A stretch of 64,000 bases of DNA from an uncultured bacterium. GTDB taxonomy: Bacteria; Omnitrophota; Omnitrophia; Omnitrophales; Abzuiibacteriaceae. Under the pieces are notes generated by a model that saw only the letters and a list, made by a program, of their open reading frames with translations, was not told the origin of the DNA and did no database searches. The stretch's first letter is position 1; each line of letters opens with the position of its first letter. Shown one piece after another: positions 14,409 through 62,203 of this stretch. The stretch is from NCBI GenBank assembly GCA_964387845.1, contig CAYLXA010000003.1, forward strand, positions 164,089 through 228,088, in the 5' to 3' direction. A program made the position numbers and the translations under genes.

Positions 14409-14655
14409 GCCTATATCCTTTTCTATTTCCCCAAAAAATACAAAGACAAGTTAAAAGCAGCATCAAAAAAATGGATTCATAATTAAGCTGGATCAAACAA
14501 TCTTCCAAAGATCTGCCTATTACGATTAAATCTGCAATCCGGCTCAAAGCACTGTAAACCCCGTAGCAAGCACCATCAATCAGGTAGCCTCTGCCGGCAA
14601 AGAAAGCCAGCCAGCAAATTATTGCTAAAAGAAAAAACGGTCTTTGCTTTATCAT
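14395..14655 (-). CDS. Small membrane protein (86 aa, 2-3 TM)
   Basis: Hydrophobic ORF whose start overlaps the sulfatase-like gene and whose end overlaps the AlgJ-like gene by 4 nt, consistent with operon coupling. Confidence 0.35.
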   Translation of the reverse strand: MIKQRPFFLLAIICWLAFFAGRGYLIDGACYGVYSALSRIADLIVIGRSLEDCLIQLNYESIFLMLLLTCLCIFWGNRKGYRRDKK

Positions 14656-40507: not shown

Positions 40508-41464
40508 ATGAAAATTTATTCAGATATCACCAAAACCATCGGCAATACACCGCTTGTGCGCCTAAACCGGGTTACAAAAGGCTGCAGCGCGGAAATTGTT
40601 GCCAAATTGGAGTTTTTCAACCCGATGGCGAGCGTCAAAGACCGGATCGGCGTTAATATGATTGAAGATGCGGAAAAAAAGGGTGTTTTAAAGCCCGGCG
40701 CGACCGTGATTGAACCTACGAGCGGTAATACGGGAATTGCGCTTGCGTTTGTTTGTGCCGCAAAGGGTTATAAATTGATTCTGACAATGCCCGAAACCAT
40801 GAGCATTGAACGCAGAATGCTTTTGACGCTTCTCGGTGCGGAAGTTGTACTGACAAAAGGCGAAGAAGGCATGCGCGGCGCGATTAAAAAGGCCGAAGAG
40901 TTGGTTGCATCAACACCCGGTTCATTTATGCCGCAGCAATTTAAAAATCCCGCCAATGTTGAAATCCACCGGAAATCCACCGCGGAAGAAATCTGGCGCG
41001 ATACGGACGGTAAAGTCGATATTTTAATTTCAGGTGTCGGAACCGGCGGAACTATTACAGGCGTTTCTGAAGTCATCAAAACTAAAAAATCGAGCTTTAA
41101 AGCCATCGCAGTTGAACCGAAAGATTCGCCGGTGCTTTCAGGCGGAAAGCCGGGCCCGCATAAAATTCAGGGAATTGGCGCCGGGTTTATTCCGGATATT
41201 CTCAATACGAAAATTATTGATGAAATTATCCAAGTATCAAATGAAGAGTCGCTTGAATGGGCACGCCGGCTTGCAAAAGAAGAAGGCCTTCTCGTCGGAA
41301 TTTCTTCGGGCGCTGCTGTTTCTGCCGCAGTTCAGGTCGGGAAACGGCCCGAAAATAAAGGCAAGTTGATTGTCGTCATCATTCCAAGTTTCGGCGAGCG
41401 CTATTTGAGCACGGCACTTACGGAAGGCGTTCGTGATATTGCAACCGCACAAGCCGCCCGGTGA
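40508..41464 (+). CDS. cysK: Cysteine synthase A (O-acetylserine sulfhydrylase)
   Basis: [10 protein letters not shown] (PLP Lys), [10 protein letters not shown] and [10 protein letters not shown]. Confidence 0.9.
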
Positions 41465-42993
41465 CCGATCGATTTAAATTAGCAGCCGGTTTTGGTTTGT
41501 TGGTTGCCGTTTTACTGCTTTTTTTCTGCCTTTCACGCGACTTCGTATCCGCTTCGGAATCTTCATTCCGGTTAAGCAGCGCTACTTTCTTAATTTTCAG
41601 AATCACAATCGCACTTTTCTGCATATTTTTGCTCGTCTCACAGAATGTTTCTTTCTCCAAATATATCCCGGGCGCTGTTTTATTTCTTTTTGTGCTGATG
41701 TTCTTAGAAAAGTGGACTCAGCATATGAGCTTCAATACGCATTCCCATGATGTGGGGCTTTTTCACAGCGCGCTCTGGAATTCGTTGCACGGAAATTGGC
41801 TGCTTGATTCGGTACGAGGCCAGTTTTATCTGGCAGACCATTTGATTTTCTTTTTGTATTTTCTCATCCCGTTTTATTGGATTTACTCGGGCCCTGAAAC
41901 TTTGTATTTTTTATCAGCCGTTGCGTTTGCATTTAGTGCATTCTTCATTTTCAAACTTGCAAAAGAGCGCTTGAAGAATGAGCTCGCGGCCTTTTTAATT
42001 TTCACCGCTTTTGCGAGCAACCGTTACATTTGGGGCGCTTTTCTGCATGAATTTCATCCGGATTTTTTTGCGCCGCTGTTTTTGTTTATACTGTTTTTTT
42101 CTTTCTATCAGAAAAAATTTTTCCCGTTCTTTCTGTCGTTTGTCTGCATTTTAATTTTGAAAGAAGATTACGCGCTCTATTTAATCCCGGCTGGAATTTA
42201 TTTTTTTATCCAAAAAGAAGGAAAACCGACCGGCCTTGCTGTGATTTTAATCAGCGTGGTTTATTTCGGAGCGGCTTATTTCTGGATACTGCCGCACATG
42301 CAGAAAATTTCAGGGATAACTTCGGGTTACACATACGTTAACTCGTGGTCTCATTTGGGTTCCGGGCCTTTTGATATTGTTAGAAATTTGGTTTTAAATC
42401 CGGCGGCTTTTCTTTCTTCAATTTCTTACAAAACAATCTTTACTTTTTTCACCAAGTTCATTTTCTTGCCCTTTTTAAGCCCCGCAAGCCTTCTATTTCT
42501 ACTTCCGCCGATTTTTTTATATACATCTGCCCAGTTTGAGCTGATCCGAGGCCTGAGCGTGCATTACGGTCTGATTCCGGCGGCGTTTGGATTCATTGCT
42601 GTGATTGAGGCTGTGAGAAATCTGGAGAAGATGAAAATACCGAAAAATCTGACTCCCATTCTGATTTCCATTTTATGTGTTGTCGGTCTTTTCCGATTCA
42701 CTTTCTTCATCCCAATGCCGGAGTCGGGAGAGCTTAAAATGCGCCAAGACGGGTTCATGAAAAAAAGGCCGATTTGTGTCCAGTCATCCCTTTTCCCGCA
42801 TTTAGTTCCTGACGGCTCATTTTCCATTTTTCCGGAATGTTCCGCAGGAGATAAATACTTACTTTTATTTGCAAAGGCCGAAACCTACCCGTTTTCAAAA
42901 CCGGAGTTTCAGAAACGTTTGTCTGAAATTATTGCAAGCGACAAGTGGCAACTTAAAGAGAATTCCGGCGGAGTCATGCTGTTTGAAAAGTGA
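41461..42993 (+). CDS. DUF2079-like polytopic membrane protein (GT-C-like)
   Basis: 510 aa with many TM helices. [32 protein letters not shown] resembles DUF2079, from memory. Overlaps the cysK stop. Confidence 0.45.
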
Positions 42994-43061
42994 GTTCGCA
43001 ATTAAATATATCTATGATATGATCACTGCTTATAAATAGAGTTTTCAAATCAAGGAAAGTT

Positions 43062-44048
43062 ATGCCTAATTTTTGGAGCAATGCAAAAGTTTTAGTAACG
43101 GGCGCGCATGGTTTTACGGGGTCTCACCTGTGTCATGAGCTTGTGGCACAAGGTGCTCAGGTAAAAGCGTTTGTGAAGAACGGTGGCATGATCGCAAACC
43201 TTGCCGATATCCGCGATAAAATCACGATCTATTCGGGTGACGTTACGGATATTACAAGCCTTTTCACCTCAATGGAGGGCGTCGACTACGTATTTAATGC
43301 CGCCGCCATTGTTCCCGTTATCGAAGCCCGTCAGTCTCCGCAAGCCTGTCTTCAAGTGAATACCATCGGTGCCTACAACGTTGCTTATGCTGCGATGAAA
43401 TCGGGTATTAAAAAAATGCTTCACGTAAGCACCTGTCATATTTACGGATTTAGTTCAGCCGACGAGCTTCCGATCAAAGAAACCCTGGTTCCTCGCCCAA
43501 GAGACGTTTATGCAGCATCAAAATATGCCGCAGAGATTTGTTTAAAAACACTGGTTGATGAAGGTTTTCCCATTACTTTTACCCGGGCGTTTGCGATGTA
43601 TGGCCCCGGCCAACGGGAACAGTTGTTTATTCCGAGAGTAATTGCCCATTTGCTTAGAGGAGAAGCGCCCAAGCTTGGCAATTCTCACCCGACACGCGAC
43701 TACTGCTTTATCAAAGACACGGTTAGAGGTTATTTACTTGCGCTTGAAAAGGGAAAGCCGGGCGAAGTTTATCATTTGAGTTCCGGGAAAGAAGTTGTCA
43801 TGAAAGATTTGTATGATCTAATTGCAAAGCTATTGGGAAGTAATTTAAAAGCCACCTGGAATATGGATCCTAGGCCGCACGAAATTGACAGGCTTTGCGG
43901 AAATTCAGACAAAGCCCGTTCTGCATTCAACTGGAAGCCCGAAGTGAGTTTTGAAGAGGGCCTTAAAATTACGATTGAATGGTGGAAAAGCCATCCGGAA
44001 TTATGGAAGCCCGGTTCCGGCCACCCTGTTGCGCCTTTAGCAAGATAA
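43062..44048 (+). CDS. NAD-dependent NDP-sugar epimerase/dehydratase
   Basis: VLVTGAHGFTGSHL (Rossmann) and YAASKYAAE (YxxxK). Confidence 0.8.
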   Translation: MPNFWSNAKVLVTGAHGFTGSHLCHELVAQGAQVKAFVKNGGMIANLADIRDKITIYSGDVTDITSLFTSMEGVDYVFNAAAIVPVIEARQSPQACLQVNTIGAYNVAYAAMKSGIKKMLHVSTCHIYGFSSADELPIKETLVPRPRDVYAASKYAAEICLKTLVDEGFPITFTRAFAMYGPGQREQLFIPRVIAHLLRGEAPKLGNSHPTRDYCFIKDTVRGYLLALEKGKPGEVYHLSSGKEVVMKDLYDLIAKLLGSNLKATWNMDPRPHEIDRLCGNSDKARSAFNWKPEVSFEEGLKITIEWWKSHPELWKPGSGHPVAPLAR

Positions 44049-44054
44049 AAAATC

Positions 44055-46421
44055 GTGCTTAAAGCAAAAGCCGCGAATGCATCCCATTGTTTTTGGTTTC
44101 TTCTAATTGTTCTTGCCCAGTTTATTTTCTTTGCGTATTGGATCATAACGCAAAGGATGTTCAGTGAGCACGACACATTCCATTTTTTTAGTCTCCAATA
44201 TTATTATTTAAATCATGCCGTGATGTATGGAGCCATTCCGCAATGGATCCCGTTTCTGACACACGGACTGATCGCCAGCCAGTTTTACGCTTTACAATCT
44301 GGACTCCTGCAAAATGTATTCATGCTGATTGCGCCCGTCTTTAAGCCGTTTAATTTTCTCAATATTTTTTACGCCAGCATGTTTATAGACGAATTGTTTC
44401 TTCTGGCCGGTTCGTGGCTTTTGGCAAAACGTTATTTTAAGTCAGTTTACACGGTTTTTTTTGTCTGCATTTCTGTCATCGGGTCAGCAATTTGGGCCTA
44501 CCAGCCGTGGTTTAATTTCCGGTTCTATTATGCAATTCCGCTTATTCTTTTCTTTTTTCACACATTCTTAGATACGGGCCGCTGGCGGTATTTTGTTCTT
44601 GGCATGAATCTAATTGCCATTCAAACGCTAGGCAATTTGTCCTATCTCATTCCGTTTACGACCGCCGCTCTTTTTGTATACTTTCTGTTGCATTTTTTTC
44701 TAAATCAGGAAACTGTTCTCAAACAATTCAGCCAAATCCGGTTCAATCACTCGTTATGGATTCCGGCTTTTTGGATAGCCGTGTCTTTTACGGCGGTTTA
44801 TGCAATCTTGGCTTTCGGCACCGATCAAGTTTTGTATTACGGCCACTTGCGGGCCCGCGACGGCAGTGTTGCATTAGAAAGTTTTATGCATACGAGGCCT
44901 GAAATGGGAAGGTTTAGCTTTTTTGAGTTCATGCTGGGCATTTTGCCTTTTAATGATTACACCATGTATACAGGTTTTATCTCGGCTTTTATGGTTATGT
45001 GGGCGCTGGTTACTAAGTGGGATAGCCGGAAATCCGCTTTGATCTTGTTTTGTGCTTTCATTTTATTTTTCGCCTACGGCACTTTTGTGAGTATTTTCTT
45101 CTACCATGTCTGGCCCATGATGAAATATTTCCGCCACATTGAATTGACGATGAGTTTTTGTAAGTTGTTTCTTTGCTTTTTAGCAGGGTTTGGCTTTGAG
45201 GCGTTTTTTATATCTCAAGAACCTTCCGGAAGAATAAAAATCCTTTTCGCTGCACTAGCTTTAATTATTTCCGCAGGTTTTTCTGCCGTCATGGCCAATC
45301 CTGATTTGTCCGGAAAAATATTTTCCTTTTTTAAATTAGACCCCGCTTTTGTTGATTTTTTGTACAGGAAGTATGAAGCAAGAGGCCTTTTGATTTTAGC
45401 GGCGGGATTGGCTTTTTCCGCAGTTTTGCTGATAAGTCTTAAAAAAAAGTTTGCTGCAATTCTGTGGTTTGTATTAATGGTTCATAGTTTGGATCTTTTT
45501 TTTTACAAGTGGCAGTTATTTTATGACGGCAGCACAAAATTGAGCCCAAAACAGTACCAGACGCTGCAATTTACCAAGATTCCCTTTTTTGAAAGCCGGG
45601 AAAGTAGTTATACGGAAAGAGAGGTTATTTTTGGAGATGAGCCTAGCAAATTTTTTGAGGGAAGCAATGCCAGGTATTGGACACTTTTTACATTTCTTTT
45701 TCAAGATAGCTTTAACAGCGAGCGGCAAACCGATCAGTGGCTGAAGCCGCTCGATCATTTGATAAAGGCTTACCATGGCCAGTCTATTCATGATACAGAA
45801 GCTGTGCCTGCTGACGGATTTAATCAAAGGGAGCACAAACTCATTCTGCCTAATAAACCCTCGCTCCAAAAAATCAGCTCCCTCACCGAAGACAAAATCC
45901 AGTTCTTCTCGGATGCCCATATCCTGGGTTCTCCGGATGAGGTTGCCGGATTAATGACAGACCCTCAATTTAAGGGAGATCTTCTTTTCTTGAATCAGCC
46001 GGGCCATGATCCTAAACCCTTTAACCGGCCGCTTGATTCCAATGAGCGCCTGAATCTCGACTATGAAGTCACTCATTTTGATTCCAATCAAATCCAAGTC
46101 TCAGTCAATATCCCGGGCAATCAACCCGCCTGGATATTCTACAGCGATGTCTGGCATCCTTTTTGGAAGGTAATAGTCAACGGTAAAACAAAAACAGTCT
46201 ATAAAGCCGATCTTGCCTATAAAGCCGCCCCCCTAGAACCCGGGCAAAACAACATACGTTTCTACTTCGAATCCAACTGGATCTCTTTCCTTCATCTCTT
46301 CTTTAACCTCCATGCCGTCTTCTGGCTCCTCATCCTGTGCCTGCTCATTGCCAAGATCTGTGTGCCGGAGGGGAGGTGGGGCAGGTTAAAAATTTTCGCT
46401 TTGATGCTTAAAGAGATATGA
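44055..46421 (+). CDS. YfhO-like GT-C-type membrane protein, paralog 1 (788 aa)
   Basis: About 12 N-terminal TM helices, an extracytoplasmic domain of roughly 300 aa and a terminal TM. The architecture matches the YfhO family. The product is inferred. Confidence 0.45.
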   Translation: MLKAKAANASHCFWFLLIVLAQFIFFAYWIITQRMFSEHDTFHFFSLQYYYLNHAVMYGAIPQWIPFLTHGLIASQFYALQSGLLQNVFMLIAPVFKPFNFLNIFYASMFIDELFLLAGSWLLAKRYFKSVYTVFFVCISVIGSAIWAYQPWFNFRFYYAIPLILFFFHTFLDTGRWRYFVLGMNLIAIQTLGNLSYLIPFTTAALFVYFLLHFFLNQETVLKQFSQIRFNHSLWIPAFWIAVSFTAVYAILAFGTDQVLYYGHLRARDGSVALESFMHTRPEMGRFSFFEFMLGILPFNDYTMYTGFISAFMVMWALVTKWDSRKSALILFCAFILFFAYGTFVSIFFYHVWPMMKYFRHIELTMSFCKLFLCFLAGFGFEAFFISQEPSGRIKILFAALALIISAGFSAVMANPDLSGKIFSFFKLDPAFVDFLYRKYEARGLLILAAGLAFSAVLLISLKKKFAAILWFVLMVHSLDLFFYKWQLFYDGSTKLSPKQYQTLQFTKIPFFESRESSYTEREVIFGDEPSKFFEGSNARYWTLFTFLFQDSFNSERQTDQWLKPLDHLIKAYHGQSIHDTEAVPADGFNQREHKLILPNKPSLQKISSLTEDKIQFFSDAHILGSPDEVAGLMTDPQFKGDLLFLNQPGHDPKPFNRPLDSNERLNLDYEVTHFDSNQIQVSVNIPGNQPAWIFYSDVWHPFWKVIVNGKTKTVYKADLAYKAAPLEPGQNNIRFYFESNWISFLHLFFNLHAVFWLLILCLLIAKICVPEGRWGRLKIFALMLKEI
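44169..44257 (+). repeat. 89-bp segment 100% identical to 49062-49150
   Basis: Direct nucleotide comparison; encodes HDTFHFFSLQYYYLNHAVMYGAIPQWIPFL in both paralogs. Confidence 0.9.
45106..45159 (+). repeat. 54-bp segment 100% identical to 49999-50052
   Basis: Encodes VWPMMKYFRHIELTMSF in both paralogs. Confidence 0.9.
45867..46376 (+). repeat. 510-bp segment 100% identical to 50679-51188
   Basis: The whole C-terminal domain (LQKISSLTEDKIQFF...LLIAKICVPEGR) is identical at the DNA level in both paralogs. Confidence 0.9.
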
Positions 46422-46454
46422 TAAGCTGACATTTAAGATTTTGAATTAGGATTA

Positions 46455-47474
46455 TTGTTCAATCGAAACCAATTCAAAAACCCTATGTTTCAAAACAAAA
46501 AAGTACTAGTGACCGGCGGCAGCGGGATGATCGGCCGGTTTTTGGTCGATTTTCTCATTGAAAAGGGCGCCAAAGTCAGGGTTGCGTCTCTGGATGATCC
46601 GTCGCGCGTACATGCCAAAGCAGAATTCCGCCGTGCAAATTTAACGGAATTTAGTGCCTGCCTGGCGGCCTGCGAAGGCATGGATTATGTTTTTCATTTG
46701 GCAGGAATCAAGGGCTCCCCATTAATGGCGGCCAAAAGGCCCGCTAGTTTCTTTGTCCCTATTATTTCATTCAATACCAACATGATGGAAGCGGCGCGTC
46801 AGTGCAAAGTCGAGCGCTATTTGTATACCAGCACTATCGGAGTTTACGCTCCGGCTGAAGTATTCTATGAAGACGATGTATGGAAAGCATTTCCTTCCGA
46901 GAATGACAAGTTTGCGGGATGGGCCAAGCGCATCGGGGAACTTCAGGCCGAAGCCTATAAAATTGAGCACGGCTGGAACGGTGTTCAGATTGTCAGGCCG
47001 GCCAACGTGTACGGCCCTTATGATAATTTTGACCCCAACAATTCAACTGTCATAGCGTCATTAATTAAACGGGCCGTAGATGGTGAAAATCCGCTTACGG
47101 TTTGGGGCGATGGTTCGCCGATCCGAGATTTTATTCACGCCAAAGACGTTGCCCGCGGCATGCTGATTGTGATGGAAAAAATGCCCGGAAAGCCCGTCAA
47201 TTTGGGAAGTGGCGTGGGTGTTACCATTAAACAAATTGTCGAAGTTATCGTGAGCCATTTAAAGAAAAAACCCGAAATTATGTGGGATACGTCAAAGCCG
47301 TTGGGCGATAAAAAGCGCCTGATGGATGTTGCGCGCGCCAAGTCTATCGGTTTTGAACCCGAAATATCGATTGAGCAAGGGATTCATGAACTCATGGATT
47401 GGTATCGAGCCAATAGGCAGTTACTTGATAAACGGTATAATGTTTTTACTCAAGATAGATTGATGTCAACCTAG
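46455..47474 (+). CDS. GDP-L-fucose synthase-like NAD(P)-dependent epimerase/reductase
   Basis: VLVTGGSGMIGRFL and a YxxxK motif; Fcl/WcaG-like. Confidence 0.7.
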   Translation: MFNRNQFKNPMFQNKKVLVTGGSGMIGRFLVDFLIEKGAKVRVASLDDPSRVHAKAEFRRANLTEFSACLAACEGMDYVFHLAGIKGSPLMAAKRPASFFVPIISFNTNMMEAARQCKVERYLYTSTIGVYAPAEVFYEDDVWKAFPSENDKFAGWAKRIGELQAEAYKIEHGWNGVQIVRPANVYGPYDNFDPNNSTVIASLIKRAVDGENPLTVWGDGSPIRDFIHAKDVARGMLIVMEKMPGKPVNLGSGVGVTIKQIVEVIVSHLKKKPEIMWDTSKPLGDKKRLMDVARAKSIGFEPEISIEQGIHELMDWYRANRQLLDKRYNVFTQDRLMST

Positions 47475-47527
47475 AAAGGCGGCGCTGTATTTCCCAAAAT
47501 TTTTTAATTACCGGGATTCGAAGCGGC

Positions 47528-48256
47528 TTGGGCCGATATTTGCACGAAGAACTCAAAGGGCGAGGTATTTCTCGAGAAACGATTGGTGAAGAATTTAATC
47601 AAATAATAAAATCAGGCGCTCAAACGATTATTCATTGTGCCTTTAACTCGTTTCAGAACGCCGACCCTGCATTAGCAAGCAATCTTCGTAAAGAAAATCT
47701 CGTGTTCACAAAAAAACTGACCCAAATCCCTCATCAAAAGTTTATTTTTATTTCCAGTGTAGATGTTTATCCAAGAAATTCGGAACTGCACAACGAAAAT
47801 GAAGTTATTCAAGAGAACCAAGTCGAAGGCGTATACGCCAAAAGCAAATTTGAATGTGAATCAGCCGTTCAAATCGGGTGTAAAAATTATTTAATATTGC
47901 GCTCTTCGTCACTCCTTGGTAAATATTCGAGACCGAGCAGTTTAATTCGCATATTAAAAGAAGAAAATTGCCGGCTGACATTGTCGCCTGATTCGGATTT
48001 AAATTGCGTACTTTATGAAGATGTTCTCGGATTTTTGCGTCTTTCAGTCAAAGAAAGTCTGAAGGGAGTTTATAACACCGTGTCATCGGGAAATATTTTG
48101 GTGTCTGATGCTGCGAAATTATTAAAGAAAAAAGTAGAGTTTGGAAATTATAGTTATCAGGTCGGAAACGTCGATAATCGTAAAGCTTCATTGATATATC
48201 CGGCATTTAAGAAGACATCAGAGCAAATATTCAAACAATTTTCTAGACAAATATGA
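47528..48256 (+). CDS. RmlD-like NAD(P)-dependent reductase/epimerase, apparently using a non-ATG start
   Basis: YAKSK catalytic motif. The Rossmann-like LITGIRSGLGRYL lies upstream of the only TTG start (47528), with a TAG stop at 47456. There is no in-frame ATG. Confidence 0.45.
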   Translation: MGRYLHEELKGRGISRETIGEEFNQIIKSGAQTIIHCAFNSFQNADPALASNLRKENLVFTKKLTQIPHQKFIFISSVDVYPRNSELHNENEVIQENQVEGVYAKSKFECESAVQIGCKNYLILRSSSLLGKYSRPSSLIRILKEENCRLTLSPDSDLNCVLYEDVLGFLRLSVKESLKGVYNTVSSGNILVSDAAKLLKKKVEFGNYSYQVGNVDNRKASLIYPAFKKTSEQIFKQFSRQI

Positions 48257-48924
48257 AGACAACTTTATTAGTTCCTACTCTGAACGAAATTGAAGGCATG
48301 AAAATCATCATGCCAAGAATTGACCCTAAGTGGGTTGATGAAATTTTAGTAATCGACGGCGGCTCTACGGACGGAACCATTGAATATGCGAAGGAGCACG
48401 GCTATCGGCTGATACATCAAAAATCAAAAGGAATCACATTGGCCTATAAAGAAGCTTTGGATCAAATTTCAAACGATGTTGTCATTGCGTTCAGCCCTGA
48501 CGGCAACTCAGTTCCTGAAATAATTCCGGATTTGATACGGGCCATGAAAGAAGGATACGACATGGTGATCGTTTCTCGCTATTTAAAAGGAGCTGGTAGT
48601 GAAGATGACGACCCCGTTACCGCATTTGGGAATTGGATGTTTACCGCGATCATCAATCTGGTTTTTGGAGGGCATTATACCGATACGCTCGTGATGTTCC
48701 GGGCTTTTAAGACGAGCGTTGTTAAATCGTTTCCGACCAATGTGCCGCGCGCAGGCCTTGAACCCATGCTTTCCATCCGGTGCGCTAAGCATAAACTCAA
48801 AGTTTCTGAAATTCCGGGTAAAGAACCAAAGCGAATCGGCGGAATCCGAAAAATGGTCCCTATTTTGAATGGGCTCGATATTGTAAAGCTCATCGTCCAA
48901 GAGAGACTTTCACCGAATTCTTAA
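48253..48924 (+). CDS. GT2-family polyprenol-phosphate glycosyltransferase (GtrB/CsbB/DPM1-like)
   Basis: LLVPTLNE...ILVIDGGSTDGT...DADLQ-like DxD region. 223 aa. Confidence 0.7.
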   Translation: MKTTLLVPTLNEIEGMKIIMPRIDPKWVDEILVIDGGSTDGTIEYAKEHGYRLIHQKSKGITLAYKEALDQISNDVVIAFSPDGNSVPEIIPDLIRAMKEGYDMVIVSRYLKGAGSEDDDPVTAFGNWMFTAIINLVFGGHYTDTLVMFRAFKTSVVKSFPTNVPRAGLEPMLSIRCAKHKLKVSEIPGKEPKRIGGIRKMVPILNGLDIVKLIVQERLSPNS

Positions 48925-48947
48925 GCCTTCCTTTATTAGAGGTTAGC

Positions 48948-51221
48948 TTGGAAAAGATAAAAAAATTTTTTAATCTAGAATTCCGTTTATTTTTTCTGCT
49001 AGTTTCAATTCAAGCCGCTTTTTTTTTGACGTTAATTCTGCAAAAAAGGCTCCCAAATTCACACGACACATTCCATTTTTTTAGTCTCCAATATTATTAT
49101 TTAAATCATGCCGTGATGTATGGAGCCATTCCGCAATGGATCCCGTTTCTCACGCACGGATTGATTGCAAACGGATTTTATGCGCTGCAATGCGGGTTTC
49201 TACAGAACGTGCTTATGGCGGCTGCGCCGTTTTTGAGCAAAATCAATTTCTTGCCCGTATTTTATGCGGGCATGTTTGTCGATGAGCTTCTGCTGGTTGT
49301 TGGTACTTGGCTGCTTGCCAAAAGATTTTTTTCATCTTTATCGACCGTTTTTTTTGTTTGCATCTCGGTCGTCGGCTCCTCCGTTTGGGTAACCCAACCG
49401 TGGTTTAATTTTCGGTTTCTTTATACGGTTCCGCTTATGATTTATTTTTTTCATCTGTTTCTTGAATCTGCCAAATGGCGGTATTTTTTCCTAGGATTTG
49501 GCTTAATGGCCTTTCAAACGCTCGGCAATTTGGCGTATTCGATTCCGTTTACCAGTGTTTTTATTTTCATGTACTTTTTATTTTATACAGCTTTAAATTT
49601 CAGAAACGTACTGGCTCAAGCCAAACAAATAAAATTTAATTTTTCGTTGCTGATTCCGGCTTTGTGGGTGATTGCACTATTCGTGCTCTGTTACAGCATT
49701 CTTTCATTCGGAACGGATGAGGTAATGCATTACGGTTTTAACAGGAATCGAGACGGCACTGTCAGCCTCGGTGATTTTTTGGATGCAAGCCCACTTTTGG
49801 CCAGGCTCAGTCCCGATGAGCTTCTGTTTGGTGCGCTTCCGTCAATTGATTACTCGCTATATGCAGGAGTGGCGGCAGTTTATTTTGCGATAGCGGGCGC
49901 TATTGCAAACAGAAGTAGAAATAAAATCGTATTTGTTTTATTGGCCATTTTTATCATGCTCTTTTCTCAGGGAGCTTTTGTCAGCATGTTTTTTTATTAT
50001 GTCTGGCCCATGATGAAATATTTCCGCCACATTGAATTGACGATGAGTTTTTTCAGGCTATCCATGTGCTTTTTAGCGGGTTTTGGCTTCGAGTGGCTCT
50101 TGGTTCACAAGACGGAAACAGGGAGGGCACATGTTTTTATAGCGTCGGTTTGCTTTATCGCATCATTAGGATATTTTATTTTGGGCTATGGTGAAAATAG
50201 CAACGGTTTTTTAATATTGATAATCGGAACTTTATTTTCATTTTTTCTTTTATTTGACAGAAAGAAGTGGCATGGAGTTACTGTTGTACTTTTATTAATG
50301 CTCCATAGCGTTGATATATTTGCATATAAATGGACCGAGTTTGAAAAGAAAAGTTTTTTACTCAATGAGCAACAGTATGAAATTCTAAAATTTTCAAAGA
50401 TCCCGTTTGTTAGTAAAAGAGACCAAGGATATTCGGGTCGAGAACCTATTTTGGGCGATTTGCTTCAGTTCGTGATTCGCGGAGGGAATTATTGGACGAT
50501 TTATGCATTTCTTTTCAAAGATGACTTCGATAGCTATTTACAGACCCATCAATGGATGCTACCTCTCGACCAGTATTTAAGGGCCTATGCCGGGGTTTCT
50601 ATATATGATCGTCAATCGGTGCCAATACCTACGTTTCGCATCAACCGCGCTTTGGTATTTCCAAGAAGTTCTTCTTTGCAAAAAATCAGCTCCCTCACCG
50701 AAGACAAAATCCAGTTCTTCTCGGATGCCCATATCCTGGGTTCTCCGGATGAGGTTGCCGGATTAATGACAGACCCTCAATTTAAGGGAGATCTTCTTTT
50801 CTTGAATCAGCCGGGCCATGATCCTAAACCCTTTAACCGGCCGCTTGATTCCAATGAGCGCCTGAATCTCGACTATGAAGTCACTCATTTTGATTCCAAT
50901 CAAATCCAAGTCTCAGTCAATATCCCGGGCAATCAACCCGCCTGGATATTCTACAGCGATGTCTGGCATCCTTTTTGGAAGGTAATAGTCAACGGTAAAA
51001 CAAAAACAGTCTATAAAGCCGATCTTGCCTATAAAGCCGCCCCCCTAGAACCCGGGCAAAACAACATACGTTTCTACTTCGAATCCAACTGGATCTCTTT
51101 CCTTCATCTCTTCTTTAACCTCCATGCCGTCTTCTGGCTCCTCATCCTGTGCCTGCTCATTGCCAAGATCTGTGTGCCGGAGGGGAGGCAGCGCGGCGTG
51201 AAGATATATGAATTAATTTAG
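48948..51221 (+). CDS. YfhO-like GT-C-type membrane protein, paralog 2 (757 aa; TTG start)
   Basis: Same architecture as 44055-46421. The first in-frame start is TTG at 48948. Confidence 0.45.
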   Translation: MEKIKKFFNLEFRLFFLLVSIQAAFFLTLILQKRLPNSHDTFHFFSLQYYYLNHAVMYGAIPQWIPFLTHGLIANGFYALQCGFLQNVLMAAAPFLSKINFLPVFYAGMFVDELLLVVGTWLLAKRFFSSLSTVFFVCISVVGSSVWVTQPWFNFRFLYTVPLMIYFFHLFLESAKWRYFFLGFGLMAFQTLGNLAYSIPFTSVFIFMYFLFYTALNFRNVLAQAKQIKFNFSLLIPALWVIALFVLCYSILSFGTDEVMHYGFNRNRDGTVSLGDFLDASPLLARLSPDELLFGALPSIDYSLYAGVAAVYFAIAGAIANRSRNKIVFVLLAIFIMLFSQGAFVSMFFYYVWPMMKYFRHIELTMSFFRLSMCFLAGFGFEWLLVHKTETGRAHVFIASVCFIASLGYFILGYGENSNGFLILIIGTLFSFFLLFDRKKWHGVTVVLLLMLHSVDIFAYKWTEFEKKSFLLNEQQYEILKFSKIPFVSKRDQGYSGREPILGDLLQFVIRGGNYWTIYAFLFKDDFDSYLQTHQWMLPLDQYLRAYAGVSIYDRQSVPIPTFRINRALVFPRSSSLQKISSLTEDKIQFFSDAHILGSPDEVAGLMTDPQFKGDLLFLNQPGHDPKPFNRPLDSNERLNLDYEVTHFDSNQIQVSVNIPGNQPAWIFYSDVWHPFWKVIVNGKTKTVYKADLAYKAAPLEPGQNNIRFYFESNWISFLHLFFNLHAVFWLLILCLLIAKICVPEGRQRGVKIYELI
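49062..49150 (+). repeat. 89-bp copy identical to 44169-44257
   Basis: See partner. Confidence 0.9.
49999..50052 (+). repeat. 54-bp copy identical to 45106-45159
   Basis: See partner. Confidence 0.9.
50679..51188 (+). repeat. 510-bp copy identical to 45867-46376
   Basis: See partner. Confidence 0.9.
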
Positions 51222-52199
51222 AGGAAGTTTTATGATGCTGGCTGAAATTAGCGGCTCACCGATTTCAATTTCGGTTCCAACCTGAAGATAATCACTTGCA
51301 ACGAAACCAAGCGCAAGCGGCTTTGAAAGCGCAGGCGAAAACACGGCGCTTGTGATCCGGCCGATTTCCTTTCCCGATTTTTGAATTTTATCTCCCAAAT
51401 TAGGGATTTTGTCTCCGGCCACAATAATTCCGGTTAACTGTTTTGCAAATTTTCCGCGGCTGTCGATTCGCGCGACAATTTCCTGGCCCGGGTAGCAGCC
51501 TTTTGTAAAGCTCACAGCTTTTGGCTCGATTAGTTTCACTTCCGGCAAGATAATGTCTTCAGTCAGGTCAATTCCATACCGCGGCGTTCCGGATTCAACG
51601 CGTAAAATCTGAATAATTTCAGATTCAATTTGCGAGATGCCCAGCGGCTGCGCAGCGCTTTTGATTTTTTCGAGTGCTTTGCTTTTTTCTTGGCTCGGAA
51701 TCACAATGCACCAAGTTTTAAATCCGAAAAGGGAGATACAGAAAATCCGGCAGTCAAAATCTTTTGCTTTTGACGGCCCGTGCGAAAAAATCTCCTTCGG
51801 GTAATCACTATTAAAAAGCGTTTTAACGGCATCTTCAGCTTTCGGGCCCAAAATCGCCAAGATCGAAAGCTCTTTAGATTGATTGGTAAATGTTACATCG
51901 TCGGTAACCGTAAATTTTTCTAGAACGCCAATGACTTTCTCGGTAATCGAAGATTCCATAGCAAGCCACGTTCTTTCATTTTCAACAAACACATTCATGT
52001 CGGCGATGATTTTAGCCTGAGCATTCAACAGGCAAGCATAACAGCCGCTTCCGGATTTTATGTTTTTGATATCATTTGTGAGCATCCGGTGAAGAAATGA
52101 AACGGCATCTTTTCCGTTCACTTCGATTAAGGCCCGGTTTGAAAGATCAATGATTGCGCCGTTAGATTTTGCGGATTTGTATTGATCCATGTTTTTCAT
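51213..52199 (-). CDS. ygfZ: Folate-binding Fe-S cluster repair/tRNA-modifying protein YgfZ (GcvT-like)
   Basis: KGCYPGQE signature and GcvT-like fold. Confidence 0.8.
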   Translation of the reverse strand: MKNMDQYKSAKSNGAIIDLSNRALIEVNGKDAVSFLHRMLTNDIKNIKSGSGCYACLLNAQAKIIADMNVFVENERTWLAMESSITEKVIGVLEKFTVTDDVTFTNQSKELSILAILGPKAEDAVKTLFNSDYPKEIFSHGPSKAKDFDCRIFCISLFGFKTWCIVIPSQEKSKALEKIKSAAQPLGISQIESEIIQILRVESGTPRYGIDLTEDIILPEVKLIEPKAVSFTKGCYPGQEIVARIDSRGKFAKQLTGIIVAGDKIPNLGDKIQKSGKEIGRITSAVFSPALSKPLALGFVASDYLQVGTEIEIGEPLISASIIKLPLN

Positions 52200-54361
52200 A
52201 TTTTTGTCGTCAAGCGGGTTCCGATCCAGAATAAAGCCAGTGATGCCAACACACCAAAAAGAATCTGGAGATTTGTAAAAGGTTCATAATCCATCGAAAC
52301 ATGCCGGTCTCCCGGTTTTACTTTGATGCGCATCAAGCGGTCTTCTTTTGCATAAATACCCCTCTCTTTCCCGTTGACGAGCGCTTTCCAGCCTTTTAAA
52401 TCAATAAACGTTGCAACCAACTCTTCTTCCCGTTGAATGGAAGGCAGCTTCACCTTTAGGCCGTTGCCTTTTATTTGAATCGACGCAGGATCGAGCCAGG
52501 ACCTGACGTTCCCATTTTGGAGATAAACAATACTAACCGGTTCCGGATTTTCAAAAAGCAAGAGAATGGATTGCTGGCCGGCAACGCGCCAGTTATTTTC
52601 CATCAATTCCCGGCGCGGCCCCGTCAAAATGTATTTAATTCCGAGGCGGTTCACTTTTTCCTGGTCCCAGGGCCCCACAAAATGATAAGCAAGCGGCGTC
52701 AGGTCAACTTCGATCATTTTTTCTTTCATCAGAAAATCCGCGAAACGCTTGTTTACCAAAATGCTGCGCCCCGCGCTGCCAAGAACATATTTTTCGGCAG
52801 CCCGTAAATCGTGCCCATGCGCGGTGACAATTTCGGCAGCAAGGCGTGAATTAGGCGTCATTGCGTCGAGAAATTTTTCAGGCAGAAATTTTGATTCCCA
52901 GCTGTTTGAGTAATGATGAATAGGAAAAGGGCCCGGGTCTTTGCTGACGCAGCATTCGGACCAATCTTCGAGATTCAAAATATTGGCTGCTATGGTTACC
53001 TTTGACCAAATCAGCGACAGGCCCAGCAGCCCGCAAAAAATCAGGCCGATGTTTGATCGGGCTTGTTTGCCGGAATCTATTTTTGAAGCCAAACAATAAA
53101 TTGCGTACAAAATAACAAAAGCCAAGAAAAAGAAAACGGGAAATTTATATTTCCACTCAATTTGATGCCAATCGAGCCAAAAAACTGATGCGAGAAGAAC
53201 CGCCGCAAGAATAGCTAAGGAAACCGCCAAAAACTTTTTCGAAAAGGCATTTTTTGAAATTTTATCCAGCGCGATTCCGGCCGGAACGGCAAAAAAAACG
53301 CTCGAAATCCACCAAATTCGCGTGGCATCGGTGGATTTAAGAAGCGGGGCGGATAAGTAAAAGTCTTTGAAACGCAAAAGGAGAAAGACAAAAATGACAG
53401 GCCCAATTCCTAAGATCAGAAACCGGACAGGAAAATAAATATTCTTTTTGAAATCATTCTTAAAACTCCAAACAAGCCCGATTAAGGATAAGGTGACAAG
53501 CGGCAGTGAAAAATAAATCGCGGAATCCATGTGATGGCGCCATGGTTTTTGCTGGCCGATCAGGCCCGATAAAAGCCGCTTAAAAGTGTAATCCGGAGCC
53601 AAATATTTTTGGCCGACGCGCGCGCTTTCTTTTACATGTTCAAAAAAGTTCATAAAATCTGCGTAATAAAATAAAAATCCTGCCGCGATCACGATCAAAG
53701 TCAAAATCATTTTTTTGTCAAACCTGGCTCGGGACAAAAAGAGTTGGTTCAACACGATAAAAGGGATCATCAAAAAAACAAGATTGGTGCTTGTGCTTAA
53801 AGTTGCGGTCACCATAGCCGCATAAAACAAGAAAAGGTACTTCGCGTTAGGTTTGTCATTGAAGCGCTCTTGAAATATCAAAATTGCTATAAAACATAAA
53901 AGCGACAATTGATAGTAATGGTGTGCGAAATGCCATAAAAATCCGGGCGAAAAAAAGGTGACGACTGCGCAAATAGCGGCAATTCCGGCCGGCATATATT
54001 TTTTCAAATAAAAAATAAGCGCAAACACCGTCAAAAACGCAATCGCAGCCCGATTTATTGTCATGGCTACCGGATTCGGAAAAAAATAATAGGTAAGGGC
54101 GTGGGGCGAAAACGGATAAGTGGTTGCATCGCCTAAAATAGGTGTTCCGAAATTGTGGTACAAGTTCATCATCGGAATTTGGCCGTCGCGCATGATCGAA
54201 CGGGCTATGAAAAGATTGGGAAACGTGTGATTGGCGTCGTCTGCCTTGTCGAATGCGGCACAATCGGTAAAAAAGAAAACTTTGATGATCACGAACAAAG
54301 CAATCGCCAGAGGAACAAACCCGTACACAATTTGTTTCTTAAAGCTAAACGGCATGAGCAT
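52196..54361 (-). CDS. YfhO-like polytopic membrane protein, distant third paralog (721 aa)
   Basis: N-terminal multi-TM region, extracytoplasmic domain, C-terminal TM (ILFGVLASLALFWIG). Overlaps mutY and ygfZ, consistent with operon coupling. Confidence 0.4.
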   Translation of the reverse strand: MLMPFSFKKQIVYGFVPLAIALFVIIKVFFFTDCAAFDKADDANHTFPNLFIARSIMRDGQIPMMNLYHNFGTPILGDATTYPFSPHALTYYFFPNPVAMTINRAAIAFLTVFALIFYLKKYMPAGIAAICAVVTFFSPGFLWHFAHHYYQLSLLCFIAILIFQERFNDKPNAKYLFLFYAAMVTATLSTSTNLVFLMIPFIVLNQLFLSRARFDKKMILTLIVIAAGFLFYYADFMNFFEHVKESARVGQKYLAPDYTFKRLLSGLIGQQKPWRHHMDSAIYFSLPLVTLSLIGLVWSFKNDFKKNIYFPVRFLILGIGPVIFVFLLLRFKDFYLSAPLLKSTDATRIWWISSVFFAVPAGIALDKISKNAFSKKFLAVSLAILAAVLLASVFWLDWHQIEWKYKFPVFFFLAFVILYAIYCLASKIDSGKQARSNIGLIFCGLLGLSLIWSKVTIAANILNLEDWSECCVSKDPGPFPIHHYSNSWESKFLPEKFLDAMTPNSRLAAEIVTAHGHDLRAAEKYVLGSAGRSILVNKRFADFLMKEKMIEVDLTPLAYHFVGPWDQEKVNRLGIKYILTGPRRELMENNWRVAGQQSILLLFENPEPVSIVYLQNGNVRSWLDPASIQIKGNGLKVKLPSIQREEELVATFIDLKGWKALVNGKERGIYAKEDRLMRIKVKPGDRHVSMDYEPFTNLQILFGVLASLALFWIGTRLTTKI

Positions 54362-61611: not shown

Positions 61612-61736
61612 AATCAAAAAAGACGAATAAAATTCGAAACAGCGTTTTCATTTTAACAGCGTTGCTCATTTCTAGTTTTCTGTTGCTTAATTATTTGGCA
61701 AGCGAGCAATATATCATTATCGGATGGGGCACATGA
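61608..61736 (+). CDS. Possible 42-aa single-TM peptide overlapping the rnfD stop
   Basis: ATGA overlap with rnfD. MKSKKTNKIRNSVFILTALLISSFLLLNYL... Below the ORF-track cutoff and speculative. Confidence 0.2.
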   Translation: MKSKKTNKIRNSVFILTALLISSFLLLNYLASEQYIIIGWGT

Positions 61737-62203
61737 ACCGGCTCTCACGGCTTGAATGGGCGGCCATCGCTGCTTTGTGCCTTCTGGTAGTGCCGGCTGA
61801 TGCCGGAGAGAGACTCATCTTATCTGCCGGAACATTGGCAGTTTCACTTGCGGCCGGAATGATCATTTATCCTTTTCGCAAAATTTTAACGCCGATATTT
61901 CAAATTTTGTTTTTACTGGTCTTAATTTCCACTTTGTTCGAAGTTTTGTATTTTATATTTCCATTTTCTTTCCCAGAGGTGCTGCCTCAAGCGGTTTTCG
62001 CGTCTTTGCTCTTGACGGTTGCTTCCAAAAAAGCTTCCGAGAGCTTTGAAATCGGCGGCCTTTTTCTTATTTTTATTTTAATTTCGGCGTTCGTCAATTG
62101 GGCGAGCCCCGCTGCAGTCAAGTTTTATCCAACAGCGTTTGTTGTTGTTGCATTTTTGTTCGCATTTTTGAATTTTTCGTATGCTTCCAGGAAAAATAAA
62201 TAA
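61724..62203 (+). CDS. Polytopic membrane protein, possibly a degenerate RnfE/RnfA-family subunit
   Basis: 159 aa, 5-6 TM. Only a weak resemblance (ALCLLVV versus GLCPLLAV). Confidence 0.3.
   Translation: MGHMNRLSRLEWAAIAALCLLVVPADAGERLILSAGTLAVSLAAGMIIYPFRKILTPIFQILFLLVLISTLFEVLYFIFPFSFPEVLPQAVFASLLLTVASKKASESFEIGGLFLIFILISAFVNWASPAAVKFYPTAFVVVAFLFAFLNFSYASRKNK

Follow-up and report, generated by a model that had tools for sequence, protein, structure and literature searches.

In the N-glycosylation of Haloferax, the Dol-P-hexose synthases AglJ and AglD are accompanied by the Dol-P-mannose mannosyltransferase AglS, and a polytopic enzyme adds a lipid-linked single sugar outside the membrane. 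The CsbB/GtcA/YfhO system of B. subtilis, S. aureus and L. monocytogenes attaches GlcNAc to lipoteichoic or wall teichoic acid (PMC5836110, PMC8035078), and protein O-glycosylation is carried out by the Pgf operon of Streptococcus mutans (PgfS, PgfE, PgfM1, PgfM2) and by GtrB/PgtC2 in S. pyogenes (PMC12041528). A locus of related content was analysed in a 64-kb stretch of DNA (the window), which appears to be a metagenome-derived contig. An initial annotation had described seven genes here, and ORF analysis of the window recovered plus-strand reading frames with exactly the limits it had given. The genes are tightly packed between 41461 and 51221, and since neighbouring genes either overlap or are separated by at most 68 nt, a single transcription unit is plausible; promoter and terminator scans of the locus gave results no better than shuffled sequence. 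Among the features that had been missed are one more large polytopic gene, probably part of the same system but just beyond the annotated limits, and a perfect repeat at the 3' ends of paralogs A and B. The features are as follows.

41461..42993, plus strand: DUF2079 membrane protein (510 aa, PF09852)
43062..44048, plus strand: SDR1 (328 aa, PF01370)
44055..46421, plus strand: paralog A, predicted GT-C (788 aa, YfhO-related family HMM)
46455..47474, plus strand: SDR2 (339 aa, PF01370)
47489..48256, plus strand: SDR3 (about 255 aa, PF01370; ORF first noted as 47528-48256)
48253..48924, plus strand: GT2 (223 aa, PF00535)
48948..51221, plus strand: paralog B, predicted GT-C (757 aa, same YfhO-related family as A)
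52196..54361, minus strand: protein C, probable divergent YfhO-superfamily GT-C (721 aa, profile comparison)
45867..46376, no strand assigned: 510-nt perfect direct repeat, copy 1 (3' end of A)
50679..51188, no strand assigned: 510-nt perfect direct repeat, copy 2 (3' end of B)

The first protein matched PF09852 with an E-value of 8e-42 (144 bits against a cut-off of 28.2). It has about 11 hydrophobic segments and its structure model adopts a GT-C fold, and it is predicted to be a GT-C-fold glycosyltransferase; DUF2079 genes also adjoin members of the A/B family in loci L010, L021, L024 and L042. Paralog A comprises about 12 transmembrane (TM) helices, a periplasmic domain of about 250 aa and a C-terminal TM helix, and carries the conserved loop-1 motif HDTFHFF; the corresponding loop-1 Asp of B is D40. 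The two paralogs are 60% identical overall. No Pfam or NCBIfam match was obtained for A, which matched the A/B-family HMM at E 2e-305, and in the two closest relatives its N-terminal part has orthologous counterparts in the A copy of L001 (64%) and in the only copy of L083 (61%).

The proposal that A and B are YfhO-like GT-C proteins was borne out by profile-profile and fold comparison, but not as membership of Pfam YfhO by score. When the A/B family profile was compared with 24 PF09586 proteins, 708 columns matched at 99.6% (E 1.1e-24), and the loop-1 Asp was among the aligned positions. Weak Pfam YfhO matches were found in 18 of 32 family members, and only the last ~70 positions of the Pfam profile were matched at family level. 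None of the large membrane proteins matched an unrelated family, such as a transporter, with confidence. From fold, homology and the loop-1 Asp, A and B are most likely GT-C glycosyltransferases of a YfhO-related, so far unannotated family. Protein C shares their architecture, with twelve hydrophobic segments including a C-terminal one. It matched the Pfam YfhO C-terminal motif below the cut-off (E 1.4e-4, 20.9 bits), the YfhO profile at 74.6% in hhalign (E 2.7e-5, residues 26-453) and the A/B family at 66.7% in profile comparison, and is probably a divergent YfhO-superfamily GT-C. L001 has a 60% identical orthologue in the corresponding place; L083 has none.

The GT2 matched PF00535 (E 1.7e-14). 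Its best NCBIfam matches were AglJ (3.6e-31, 109 bits against 325) and a haloarchaeal Dol-P-hexose transferase (7.2e-24, 84 against 375), followed by ArnC (4.8e-8, 32 against 529) and PgfS (4.7e-7, 29 against 500), all below the equivalog cut-offs, and its only PDB matches were P. furiosus DPMS (3.5e-13) and ArnC (1e-4). These matches suggest a polyprenyl-phosphate sugar synthase of the DPM1/AglJ/ArnC type. Together with the length of 223 aa and the lack of any hydrophobic segment or TM helix, they argue against a processive synthase.

All three SDRs were extended-SDR 'Epimerase' proteins by PF01370, as had been annotated. SDR1 (E 9e-47) resembles NDP-sugar 4,6-dehydratases and 4-epimerases; it matched LegB-like proteins (1.2e-57) and RmlB (1.9e-45), in both cases with scores well under the cut-offs, and among solved structures RmlB and T. 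maritima GalE come closest to it. In the alignment, STCH replaces the STDE of RmlB, so that the dehydratase Asp-Glu pair is absent, and YxxxK is present; SDR1 probably acts as an epimerase or a reductase and not as a dehydratase. SDR2 (E 2e-47) matched GDP-L-fucose synthase at 2.7e-44 (152 bits against a cut-off of 500) and, in the PDB, GMER at 8.6e-32. In the alignment an invariant Phe153 stands in place of Tyr136, Gly in place of Cys109 and Tyr in place of His179, and SDR2 represents an atypical, GDP-fucose-synthase-like clade of extended SDRs without the catalytic Tyr. SDR3 (PF01370 E 5.6e-7, RmlD_sub_bind E 5.6e-6, YAKSK present) has a frame open from 47459 with its first TTG at 47528. The Rossmann motif FLITGIRSGLG is encoded before any ATG, GTG or TTG appears, and homologues of 255-264 aa in L086 and L087 start at the equivalent position with L/M-(Q/E)KFL(V/I)TG. 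SDR3 is therefore probably a short RmlD-like SDR that starts at ATT 47489, with GAAAGG 9 nt upstream, or one that has lost its start codon.

Synteny was examined in other genomes and metagenomes, from which all relatives and homologues derive as MAGs or metagenomic sequences; the window's own proteins are singletons in the database. The same GT2 subfamily was found directly upstream of the A/B GT-C family in seven genomes from four phyla: L006, L008 and L009 (Smithella/Desulfobacterota), L026 and L077 (Planctomycetota), L035 (Acidobacteriota) and L074 (Hydrogenophilales). These GT2s are 48-56% identical to that of the window and lie at most 180 nt upstream of the family member on the same strand, and every residue invariant in this GT-C-linked subfamily is kept in the window's GT2. 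The pairing recurs in metagenome loci L096, L107 and L113, and in L036 (Verrucomicrobia) a convergent GT2 copy adjoins a GT-C family member. The order SDR2-SDR3-GT2 is kept on five other metagenomic contigs (L086, L087, L088, L091, L104), with SDR2 orthologues of 67-75% identity. Seen from the GT2 side the association with the GT-C family is not exclusive: among the 80 closest GT2 loci, many on short contigs, three held the A/B family, three a canonical YfhO and one DUF2079.

In L001 and L083 the DUF2079 and GT-C genes are kept at the site, where SDR and GT2 genes are lacking and a NUDIX gene takes the position of SDR1. The GT-C enzymes are thus not strictly dependent on the cassette; they can work with donors made elsewhere, and the cassette is possibly a later add-on. 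The proteins encoded on either side share 68-96% identity with their L083 and L001 counterparts. For DUF2079, A and C the identity is 60-66%, and for B only about 50%; the GT-C genes diverge much faster than their housekeeping neighbours. Their copy number also varies, from none in L081 through one in L083 to two plus one in L001 and two plus one with the cassette in the window. Such divergence and variation would be expected of a diversifying surface-glycan locus.

Positions 45867-46376 and 50679-51188 are identical over 510 nt, a segment encoding a periplasmic beta-sandwich and the last TM helix. Third-codon-position identity between A and B is 1.0 within the repeat and 0.25-0.6 elsewhere in the genes, except for a second, older tract at residues 31-60 (0.83); the L001 paralogs have no such identical tract. 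By this pattern we take the identity to be gene conversion. A chimeric join of two similar genes during metagenome assembly seems very unlikely: the apparent origin of the contig, the metagenomic source of all its relatives, the singleton status of its proteins and the abrupt switch from saturated divergence to complete identity would fit it, but both copies lie in intact reading frames with differing 3' tails and flanks, assemblers usually break at such repeats instead of duplicating them, and the older tract points to recurrent real exchange. Since the periplasmic C-terminal domain is identical while the transmembrane catalytic modules are only 50% identical, we read A and B as two enzymes that would dock on the same acceptor and differ in linkage, position or donor.

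The locus is best explained, with a probability of about 0.62, as a lineage-variable island for periplasmic glycosylation via a lipid-linked monosaccharide in a diderm, Omnitrophota-like bacterium. SDR1, SDR2 and SDR3 would remodel a common NDP-sugar made elsewhere into a modified one, a step that we only infer. From homology and conserved gene order, the GT2 would load this sugar onto undecaprenyl phosphate on the inner side of the cytoplasmic membrane, although it lacks the membrane anchor of GtrB, CsbB and ArnC. A flippase encoded elsewhere would carry the lipid-linked sugar across the membrane; in agreement with the initial annotation, no flippase of the GtrA, ArnE/F or Wzx type and no canonical LPS or LTA gene was found in the window among all ORFs of at least 150 aa and the hydrophobic short ORFs. 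On the periplasmic side A and B, and probably DUF2079 and the divergent C, would pass the sugar to one or more envelope acceptors. Several observations count against this explanation: the anchorless GT2, the missing flippase, the loss of the catalytic Tyr in SDR2 and of the Asp-Glu pair in SDR1, the SDR3 gene without a canonical start codon, the absence of the cassette from the closest relatives, and the non-exclusive association seen from the GT2 side.

The four GT-Cs could instead act in turn on one chain, forming different linkages from the same lipid-linked monosaccharide donor and building an oligo- or polysaccharide outside the membrane, as do the mycobacterial Emb/Aft arabinosyltransferases with decaprenyl-P-arabinose and the ER enzymes ALG3/9/12 with Dol-P-Man. 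Four GT-C-fold genes for a single polyprenyl-P GT2, the presence of AftD, AftA, ALG12 and ALG9 among the structural neighbours, tandem arrays of two to three full-length copies in 16 of the 64 loci holding at least one, and the absence of separate polymer-synthesis genes near the locus are consistent with such assembly. It is nevertheless unlikely: one family copy suffices in L083 and none is present in L081, which is more in keeping with a decoration that is optional than with an assembly line whose every step is required; the C-terminal domain, identical in A and B, suggests a single shared acceptor and not successive intermediates; and in every characterised case a YfhO protein adds one sugar to an acceptor made beforehand (PMC8035078, PMC12041528).

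The lack of adjacent polymer-synthesis genes would equally suit a system in which Ser/Thr-rich stretches of proteins in the periplasm or outer membrane receive the sugar from Und-P-sugar, as in streptococcal Pgf and GtrB/PgtC2. The gene content mirrors the Pgf operon (PMC12041528), PgfS is among the matches of the GT2, and the top structural neighbours in fold comparison were the protein glycosyltransferases STT3B, Pmt4, PglB and Pmt2. However, no gene for a Ser/Thr-rich substrate was seen in or beside the locus and the PgfS match is far below its cut-off, and we consider protein O-glycosylation distinctly unlikely. It is quite improbable that two unrelated modules are interleaved here, the SDR/GT2 cassette having been acquired laterally for another pathway and the GT-Cs using a different donor, so that their proximity would be functionally meaningless. 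The cassette is absent at this site in both close relatives, another contig of the L001 metagenome (L086) carries a GT2 of 75% identity next to the same SDR2-SDR3 pair but beside different genes, and most loci of the GT2 subfamily lack the A/B family. Against this, the subfamily is the immediate upstream neighbour of the GT-C family across the four phyla, where by a rough, uncomputed estimate chance alone would place a GT2 well below 1% of the time; B starts 24 nt downstream of the GT2 stop codon on the same strand; and 18 of 26 long GT2 loci have a large polytopic protein within 6 kb, a count without background control.

Glycosylation of this kind has precedents in the CsbB/GtcA/YfhO and Pgf systems (PMC8035078, PMC5836110, PMC12041528). 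As in the former, a GT2 predicted to make a C55-P-sugar is encoded adjacent to a YfhO-superfamily GT-C of about 12-13 TM helices whose C-terminal part forms a large extracytoplasmic domain and ends in a TM helix, and the flippase is not encoded in the locus. In contrast to that system, the host is a candidate-phylum diderm in which teichoic acids are not expected, the scores of A and B do not place them in Pfam YfhO, the GT2 is a 223-aa protein without TM helices where CsbB is membrane-anchored, and there are four GT-C genes per GT2 together with dedicated sugar-modifying SDRs. The inventory of Pgf is nearly the same: one cluster combines a GT-A enzyme and an SDR epimerase with two paralogous GT-Cs of the YfhO type. 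The similarity is at superfamily level only, however, and the window has three SDRs where Pgf has one epimerase, adds DUF2079 and a third YfhO-like gene, and lacks a gene for a substrate adhesin or Ser/Thr-rich protein. Neither GtrA nor a phage context was found, unlike the GtrA/GtrB/GtrC O-antigen glucosylation cassettes of Shigella and Salmonella phages, and ArnE/F of the ArnC/ArnE-F/ArnT lipid A modification are likewise missing, the ArnC equivalog scoring 32 bits against 529. The haloarchaeal AglJ and Dol-P-hexose transferase are the closest families to the GT2, and the transferase model is similarly short (213 positions), but the host is bacterial, the carrier would be undecaprenyl and not dolichyl, and the scores lie well under the cut-offs. 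The GT-Cs belong to the YfhO lineage and not to those of GtrC or ArnT (PMT_2). The proposed mechanism would be of a known kind, multi-component transmembrane glycosylation, with a main enzyme family that is so far unannotated.

Seven closely spaced plus-strand open reading frames were confirmed at 41461-51221, with limits exactly as given in the initial annotation, whose overall interpretation of an extracytoplasmic glycosylation locus was supported, with a mechanism of a known kind. The adjoining genes are housekeeping genes (cysK, a GCV_T-like gene, mutY and bioA/D). A third YfhO-like gene, encoding protein C, lies on the opposite strand, outside the coordinates of the locus.

Genes of the locus and the gene for protein C (coordinates, strand, product, database match)
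41461-42993, plus strand: DUF2079 protein, 510 aa (Pfam E 8e-42)
43062-44048, plus strand: SDR1, extended SDR "Epimerase" (Pfam E 9e-47)
44055-46421, plus strand: paralog A, 788 aa (no Pfam or NCBIfam match)
46455-47474, plus strand: SDR2, extended SDR "Epimerase" (Pfam E 2e-47)
47528-48256, plus strand: SDR3, extended SDR "Epimerase", conventional ORF (Pfam E 6e-7)
48253-48924, plus strand: GT2, short glycosyltransferase, 223 aa (Pfam E 1.7e-14)
48948-51221, plus strand: paralog B, 757 aa (no Pfam or NCBIfam match)
52196-54361, minus strand: protein C, 721 aa, architecture as in A and B

Public gene calls for the contig appear to be N-terminally truncated for the DUF2079 protein (422 aa) and paralog A (754 aa); homologues favour 510 aa (41461-42993) and 788 aa (44055-46421). 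The Rossmann motif of SDR3 precedes the start of its conventional ORF, where the upstream open frame reads ISQNFLITGIRSGLG. Since SDR3 orthologues at two loci from a metagenome scan with GT2 (L086 and L087; 255-264 aa) start at the equivalent site with TTG or ATG, the SDR3 start is most likely the ATT at 47489, 9 nt after GAAAGG; alternatively, the start codon has been lost. The cysK stop and the DUF2079 start overlap by 4 nt in the window (41461-41464) and in the related contig L083 (7881-7884), with no overlap in the related contigs L001 and L081; the overlap suggests that the GT-C enzyme is translationally coupled to the cysteine synthase gene. Promoter and terminator scans performed no better than on shuffled sequence.

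The two paralogs, A and B, share 60% identity. Scanned directly against Pfam and NCBIfam, neither gave a match, nor did they match the Pfam YfhO profile (PF09586; gathering cut-off 28.5 bits) even at E <= 10, so that tying them to YfhO required family members, profile-profile comparison and fold comparison. Eighteen of 32 members of the unannotated family that holds A and B (the A/B family) matched Pfam YfhO weakly, at 25-30 bits and over the last ~70 profile positions only. The first search returned five precomputed PF09586 matches: four were family members (two at 25 bits, two at 28.5 and 30.2 bits) that covered only profile positions 755-829 of 835, and the fifth, P0042 (75 bits), is a canonical YfhO outlier outside the family. 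When the 32-sequence family alignment was compared by hhalign with 24 bona fide PF09586 proteins, labelled "YfhO family protein" and mainly from Chloroflexota, the two aligned from N- to C-terminus (positions 5-787 against 7-915; 708 aligned columns) with a probability of 99.6% and an E value of 1.1e-24. A sequence-profile search of the PDB with the family gave chance matches only (E about 2).

Structural similarity to solved GT-C enzymes was found, and A and B were rejected as transporters on their fold. The AF2 secondary structure consists of helices to about residue 468, a mixed alpha/beta region and then a beta-sandwich over residues 469-711, and a helix at 714-742; the hydropathy of A, B and C agrees with the architecture derived from it. 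This is a YfhO-type architecture: ~12 TM helices are followed by an extracytoplasmic domain of ~250 aa, whose final part is a beta-sandwich, and by a single TM helix at the C-terminus. The description of A and B as YfhO-like GT-C proteins therefore stands at superfamily level, on the hhalign comparison, architecture and fold, and fails as Pfam YfhO membership by score. At least 90% of the 32 family members have an aspartate immediately behind TM1 (D40 in B, within HDTFHFF), which in the profile alignment matches D41, invariant across the YfhO set; this near-invariant family residue is the predicted catalytic residue of the A/B family.

Database searches returned full-length relatives of about 720-855 aa, nearly all of them unnamed metagenome proteins. 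An exhaustive profile search gave 941 representatives at E <= 1e-30 (at least 941 clusters, counted at 50% identity) and 6007 at E <= 1e-10, and the A/B family is therefore large, though unannotated. A scan of GTDB species representatives identified 75 loci that encode it, all in MAGs, from Omnitrophota, Planctomycetota, Acidobacteriota, Desulfobacterota (Smithella), Verrucomicrobiota, Nitrospinota and a few other phyla. An apparent 195-aa neighbour family of 17 loci was dismissed, since its members proved to be ORFs read antisense within the GT-C gene. In Desulfobacterota and other phyla (L002-L009, for example L004 1-22475), two to three full-length family copies lie in tandem amid many B12-binding radical-SAM genes (23 loci, 48 genes), together with DegT aminotransferase (11 loci), PMT_2 GT-C (9 loci), polysaccharide deacetylase and short GT2 genes.

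The DUF2079 protein matched PF09852 at 144.3 bits over residues 88-419 (gathering cut-off 28.2 bits); a literature search on DUF2079/PF09852 returned nothing of functional relevance. Its residues D116 and D126-H127 are invariant and lie in the loop between model helices 95-109 and 128-141, and an acidic residue of this loop is a putative catalytic feature. DUF2079 genes adjoin A/B family members at four other loci (L010, L021, L024 and L042). Protein C matched the C-terminal part of Pfam YfhO below threshold (E 1.4e-4, 20.9 bits; cut-off 28.5). As a single sequence, it aligned with the YfhO profile over residues 26-453 at a probability of 74.6% (E 2.7e-5), and with the A/B family at 66.7%.

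The best NCBIfam matches of GT2 were AglJ (3.6e-31), a haloarchaeal Dol-P-hexose transferase (7e-24), ArnC, PgfS and PpgS. All scores lay below the equivalog cut-offs. The closest families are without exception polyprenyl-P sugar synthases, as are the only two relatives of solved structure, P. furiosus Dol-P-Man synthase (3.5e-13) and ArnC. GT2 thus looks like a polyprenyl-phosphate sugar synthase, as predicted from its relatives. It has no hydrophobic segment and is without the TM helices of GtrB, CsbB and ArnC, and is therefore neither a processive synthase, a candidate rejected on its 223 aa and lack of a TM helix, nor anchored in the GtrB style.

Homologues of GT2 with 48-56% identity lie at most 180 nt upstream of an A/B family gene, on the same strand, in seven genomes from four phyla (L006, L008, L009, L026, L035, L074 and L077). 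These GT2s have in common the motifs TFSPDGNS, SRYL..AKSEDDD and EIPG.EP.RIGGERK. The window GT2 stops 24 nt before the start of B, which is therefore the same arrangement, and the subfamily is also paired with the A/B family in L096, L107 and L113. The synteny check proposed in the initial annotation thus revealed a conserved, though not exclusive, GT2-GT-C pairing. Among the 80 closest GT2 loci of the metagenome scan, many of them on short contigs, the neighbour was an A/B family gene in 3, canonical YfhO in 3 and DUF2079 in 1; a large polytopic ORF lay within 6 kb of GT2 in 18 of 26 long loci, a figure without a background control.

A cassette of SDR2, SDR3 and GT2 was found at the five metagenome loci with the closest GT2s (L086, L087, L088, L091 and L104; GT2 identity 61-75%), across which SDR2 is 67-75% and SDR3 39-50% identical. 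Because the cassette is conserved in five loci, there is good evidence from gene order that the three proteins work together. SDR1 has no close orthologue in these five loci. The closest cassette copy, with a 75% identical GT2, is on L086 (1-12660; JGI Ga0268299_1000078), from the same metagenome as L001, and its neighbours are a B12 radical-SAM gene, an FAD oxidoreductase gene, a FemAB-like gene, a SPASM radical-SAM gene and another GT2. Two polytopic proteins beside this copy (704 and 477 aa) were considered and had no detectable relation to YfhO or DUF2079.

SDR1 resembles RmlB, LegB and GalE, at scores below the equivalog cut-offs for RmlB (155 versus 365 bits) and LegB (195 versus 475); at the dehydratase STDE site it reads STCH, without the catalytic Asp-Glu pair of the TDE motif. 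SDR2 resembles GDP-L-fucose synthase (GMER/Fcl), at 152 bits against an equivalog cut-off of 500. In SDR2 the catalytic Tyr136 is replaced by Phe153, invariant in six orthologues, and the epimerase residues Cys109 and His179 by Gly129 and Tyr189, with the Lys kept. The SDR2 clade (46455-47474; L086 4213-5205 and orthologues) carries this Phe in NDKFAGWAKR, yet is 66-75% identical within the cassette. Judged by these residues, SDR2 is an atypical SDR whose chemistry is beyond prediction by homology. SDR3, a short SDR of the RmlD-like type, retains an intact YxxxK. The attempt to identify the sugar through the SDRs was abandoned, as none reached an equivalog cut-off and two are without key catalytic residues. 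The absence of any nucleotidyltransferase implies a common NDP-sugar as the predicted precursor.

Periplasmic glycosylation via a lipid-linked monosaccharide is the predicted and best explanation of the locus, with a probability of about 0.6. The sugar would be derived from a common NDP-sugar by the SDRs, GT2 would load it on a lipid carrier, and the GT-C enzymes would transfer it on the periplasmic side. The flippase would be encoded elsewhere in the genome: no GtrA-, ArnE/F- or Wzx-type flippase was found in the locus, which has no room between genes, or among the scanned ORFs of the window, including hydrophobic ORFs below 200 aa. In several known systems the flippase gene lies elsewhere (PMC8035078). 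Both negatives of the initial annotation hold: among the scanned ORFs of the window there was neither a GtrA-like protein nor any gene for LPS, O-antigen or teichoic acid.

Other explanations compete with this one. Four enzymes of GT-C type are predicted in the neighbourhood, of which three have good support and the fourth is probable, and several GT-C enzymes could build one glycan sequentially in the periplasm, in the style of Emb/Aft or ALG. Protein O-glycosylation of the Pgf type is a further candidate; GT2 scored 29.3 bits against the PgfS equivalog cut-off of 500, and the Pgf cluster encodes its substrate Ser/Thr-rich proteins, whereas the neighbours here are housekeeping genes. The cassette and the GT-C genes could also be functionally independent; the GT2-GT-C pairing is recurrent, which speaks against independence, and non-exclusive (the A/B family at 3 of 80 loci), which speaks for it.

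The last 510 nt of A and B are identical (45867-46376 and 50679-51188), against a third-codon-position identity of 0.25-0.6 outside the tract; the N-terminal parts of the proteins are 50% identical and the C-terminal parts 96%. The tract spans the periplasmic beta-sandwich and the last TM helix. An assembly artefact could produce such a repeat but is an unlikely source of it, and gene conversion is the preferred reading. Around the predicted catalytic loop, residues 31-60 form another patch of raised similarity (44169-44335 and 49062-49228; 83% DNA identity over 167 nt, 0.83 at third positions), possibly left by an earlier gene conversion. The L001 paralogs contain no comparable tract. In large GT-C enzymes such as AftD, and possibly YfhO, a review suggests that the acceptor polymer is bound by the extracellular domains (PMC8035078); on this view, the C-terminal domain common to A and B might, as a speculation, provide common acceptor docking.

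The window and three related contigs, of which L081 is Candidatus Omnitrophica CG11, have a backbone in common: FGGY - glutaredoxin - PilT-like ATPase - UDG - CysK ... GCV_T-like (minus strand) - MutY (minus strand) - BioA - BioD - MnmA. The contents between CysK and the GCV_T-like gene differ, as does the presence of C, compared between the GCV_T-like gene and mutY.

Island contents between CysK and the GCV_T-like gene, and presence of C
Window: DUF2079 - SDR1 - A - SDR2 - SDR3 - GT2 - B; C present
L001: DUF2079 - NUDIX - A - B; C present
L083: DUF2079 - NUDIX - one GT-C; C absent
L081: H+-PPase, TrkH/TrkA genes, then DUF2079 and an unrelated soluble 1393-aa protein; C absent

Compared with L083 or L001, the window has backbone proteins of 68-96% identity, and among the island proteins DUF2079, A and C are 60-66% and B ~50% identical; L081 is syntenic with the window at 44-85% protein identity. 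The host is thereby placed within Omnitrophota or close to it. The glycosylation genes evolve faster than the backbone and vary in number. The 1393-aa protein at the GT-C position of L081 (11696-15877), with two ~270-aa internal repeats and no Pfam match, was rejected as a fused GT-C pair. Hypervariable regions of Omnitrophota chromosomes carry cell-surface biosynthesis genes among their cargo (preprint, 10.64898/2026.06.07.730766).

Elsewhere in the window, DUF481, which we take to be an outer-membrane beta-barrel family, suggests a diderm host; the Rnf-type genes are uninformative on the envelope. Two small polytopic proteins (159 and 173 aa; 61724-62203 and 62222-62743) follow RnfC-/RnfD-like genes, have no family match, are kept in L083 and may be unrecognised subunits of an Rnf-like complex. 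At 14652-17076 (minus strand), the gene for an MBOAT protein (PF03062, E 4.9e-37) overlaps that of a 310-aa partner, for which the one match is faint and DltD-like. The two resemble an O-acylation pair of the AlgI/DltB type; they lie ~25 kb from the locus and might act on the same or another surface polymer. A KatG-like catalase-peroxidase gene with two peroxidase domains (9765-12002, minus strand), within a local GC peak of 0.52 versus ~0.45 for the window, may have been laterally acquired.

To our knowledge, YfhO-type glycosyltransferases have been studied in Gram-positive bacteria only, and the Omnitrophota envelope is essentially uncharacterised. Several things are new here. A YfhO-related family that lacks annotation is paired with a TM-less GT2 of its own in diderm candidate phyla; DUF2079 is assigned a GT-C fold on fold-level model evidence; the SDR cassette is atypical; and the island, variable among close relatives, bears a recent gene-conversion tract. 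The underlying mechanism is a known one. The A/B family forms a sizeable sister family, invisible to Pfam/NCBIfam, widespread in these phyla and often in tandem arrays, with a dedicated partner predicted to be a lipid-sugar synthase, and it provides an annotation handle for ~1,000 or more clusters of "hypothetical" 750-850-aa membrane proteins. SDR2-SDR3-GT2 is small enough for E. coli expression, by which the lipid-linked sugar would be directly identifiable. The differing islands between near-identical backbones point to surface-glycan diversification in Omnitrophota.

The YfhO family has been called universal in Firmicutes, where it glycosylates teichoic acids and Ser/Thr-rich proteins (PMC12041528). 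A broader view, which we consider doubtful, is that A and B represent a large unnamed YfhO branch on which these diderm, mostly uncultivated phyla chiefly rely for periplasmic glycosylation. In those Omnitrophota that depend on a host, the branch would form a fast-evolving, cassette-swapping, gene-converting island of surface-glycan diversification, with paralogs that have one acceptor-docking domain and different catalytic modules. If true, the island would parallel the phage-driven gtr variation of O-antigens, with another GT-C lineage and with a sugar made by atypical SDRs without the catalytic Tyr. Via the proposed lipid-linked monosaccharide, the locus would be comparable to CsbB/GtcA/YfhO, Gtr, Arn and Pgf alike, and the radical-SAM-rich A/B family loci resemble an Arn-like toolkit with unexplained radical-SAM chemistry added.
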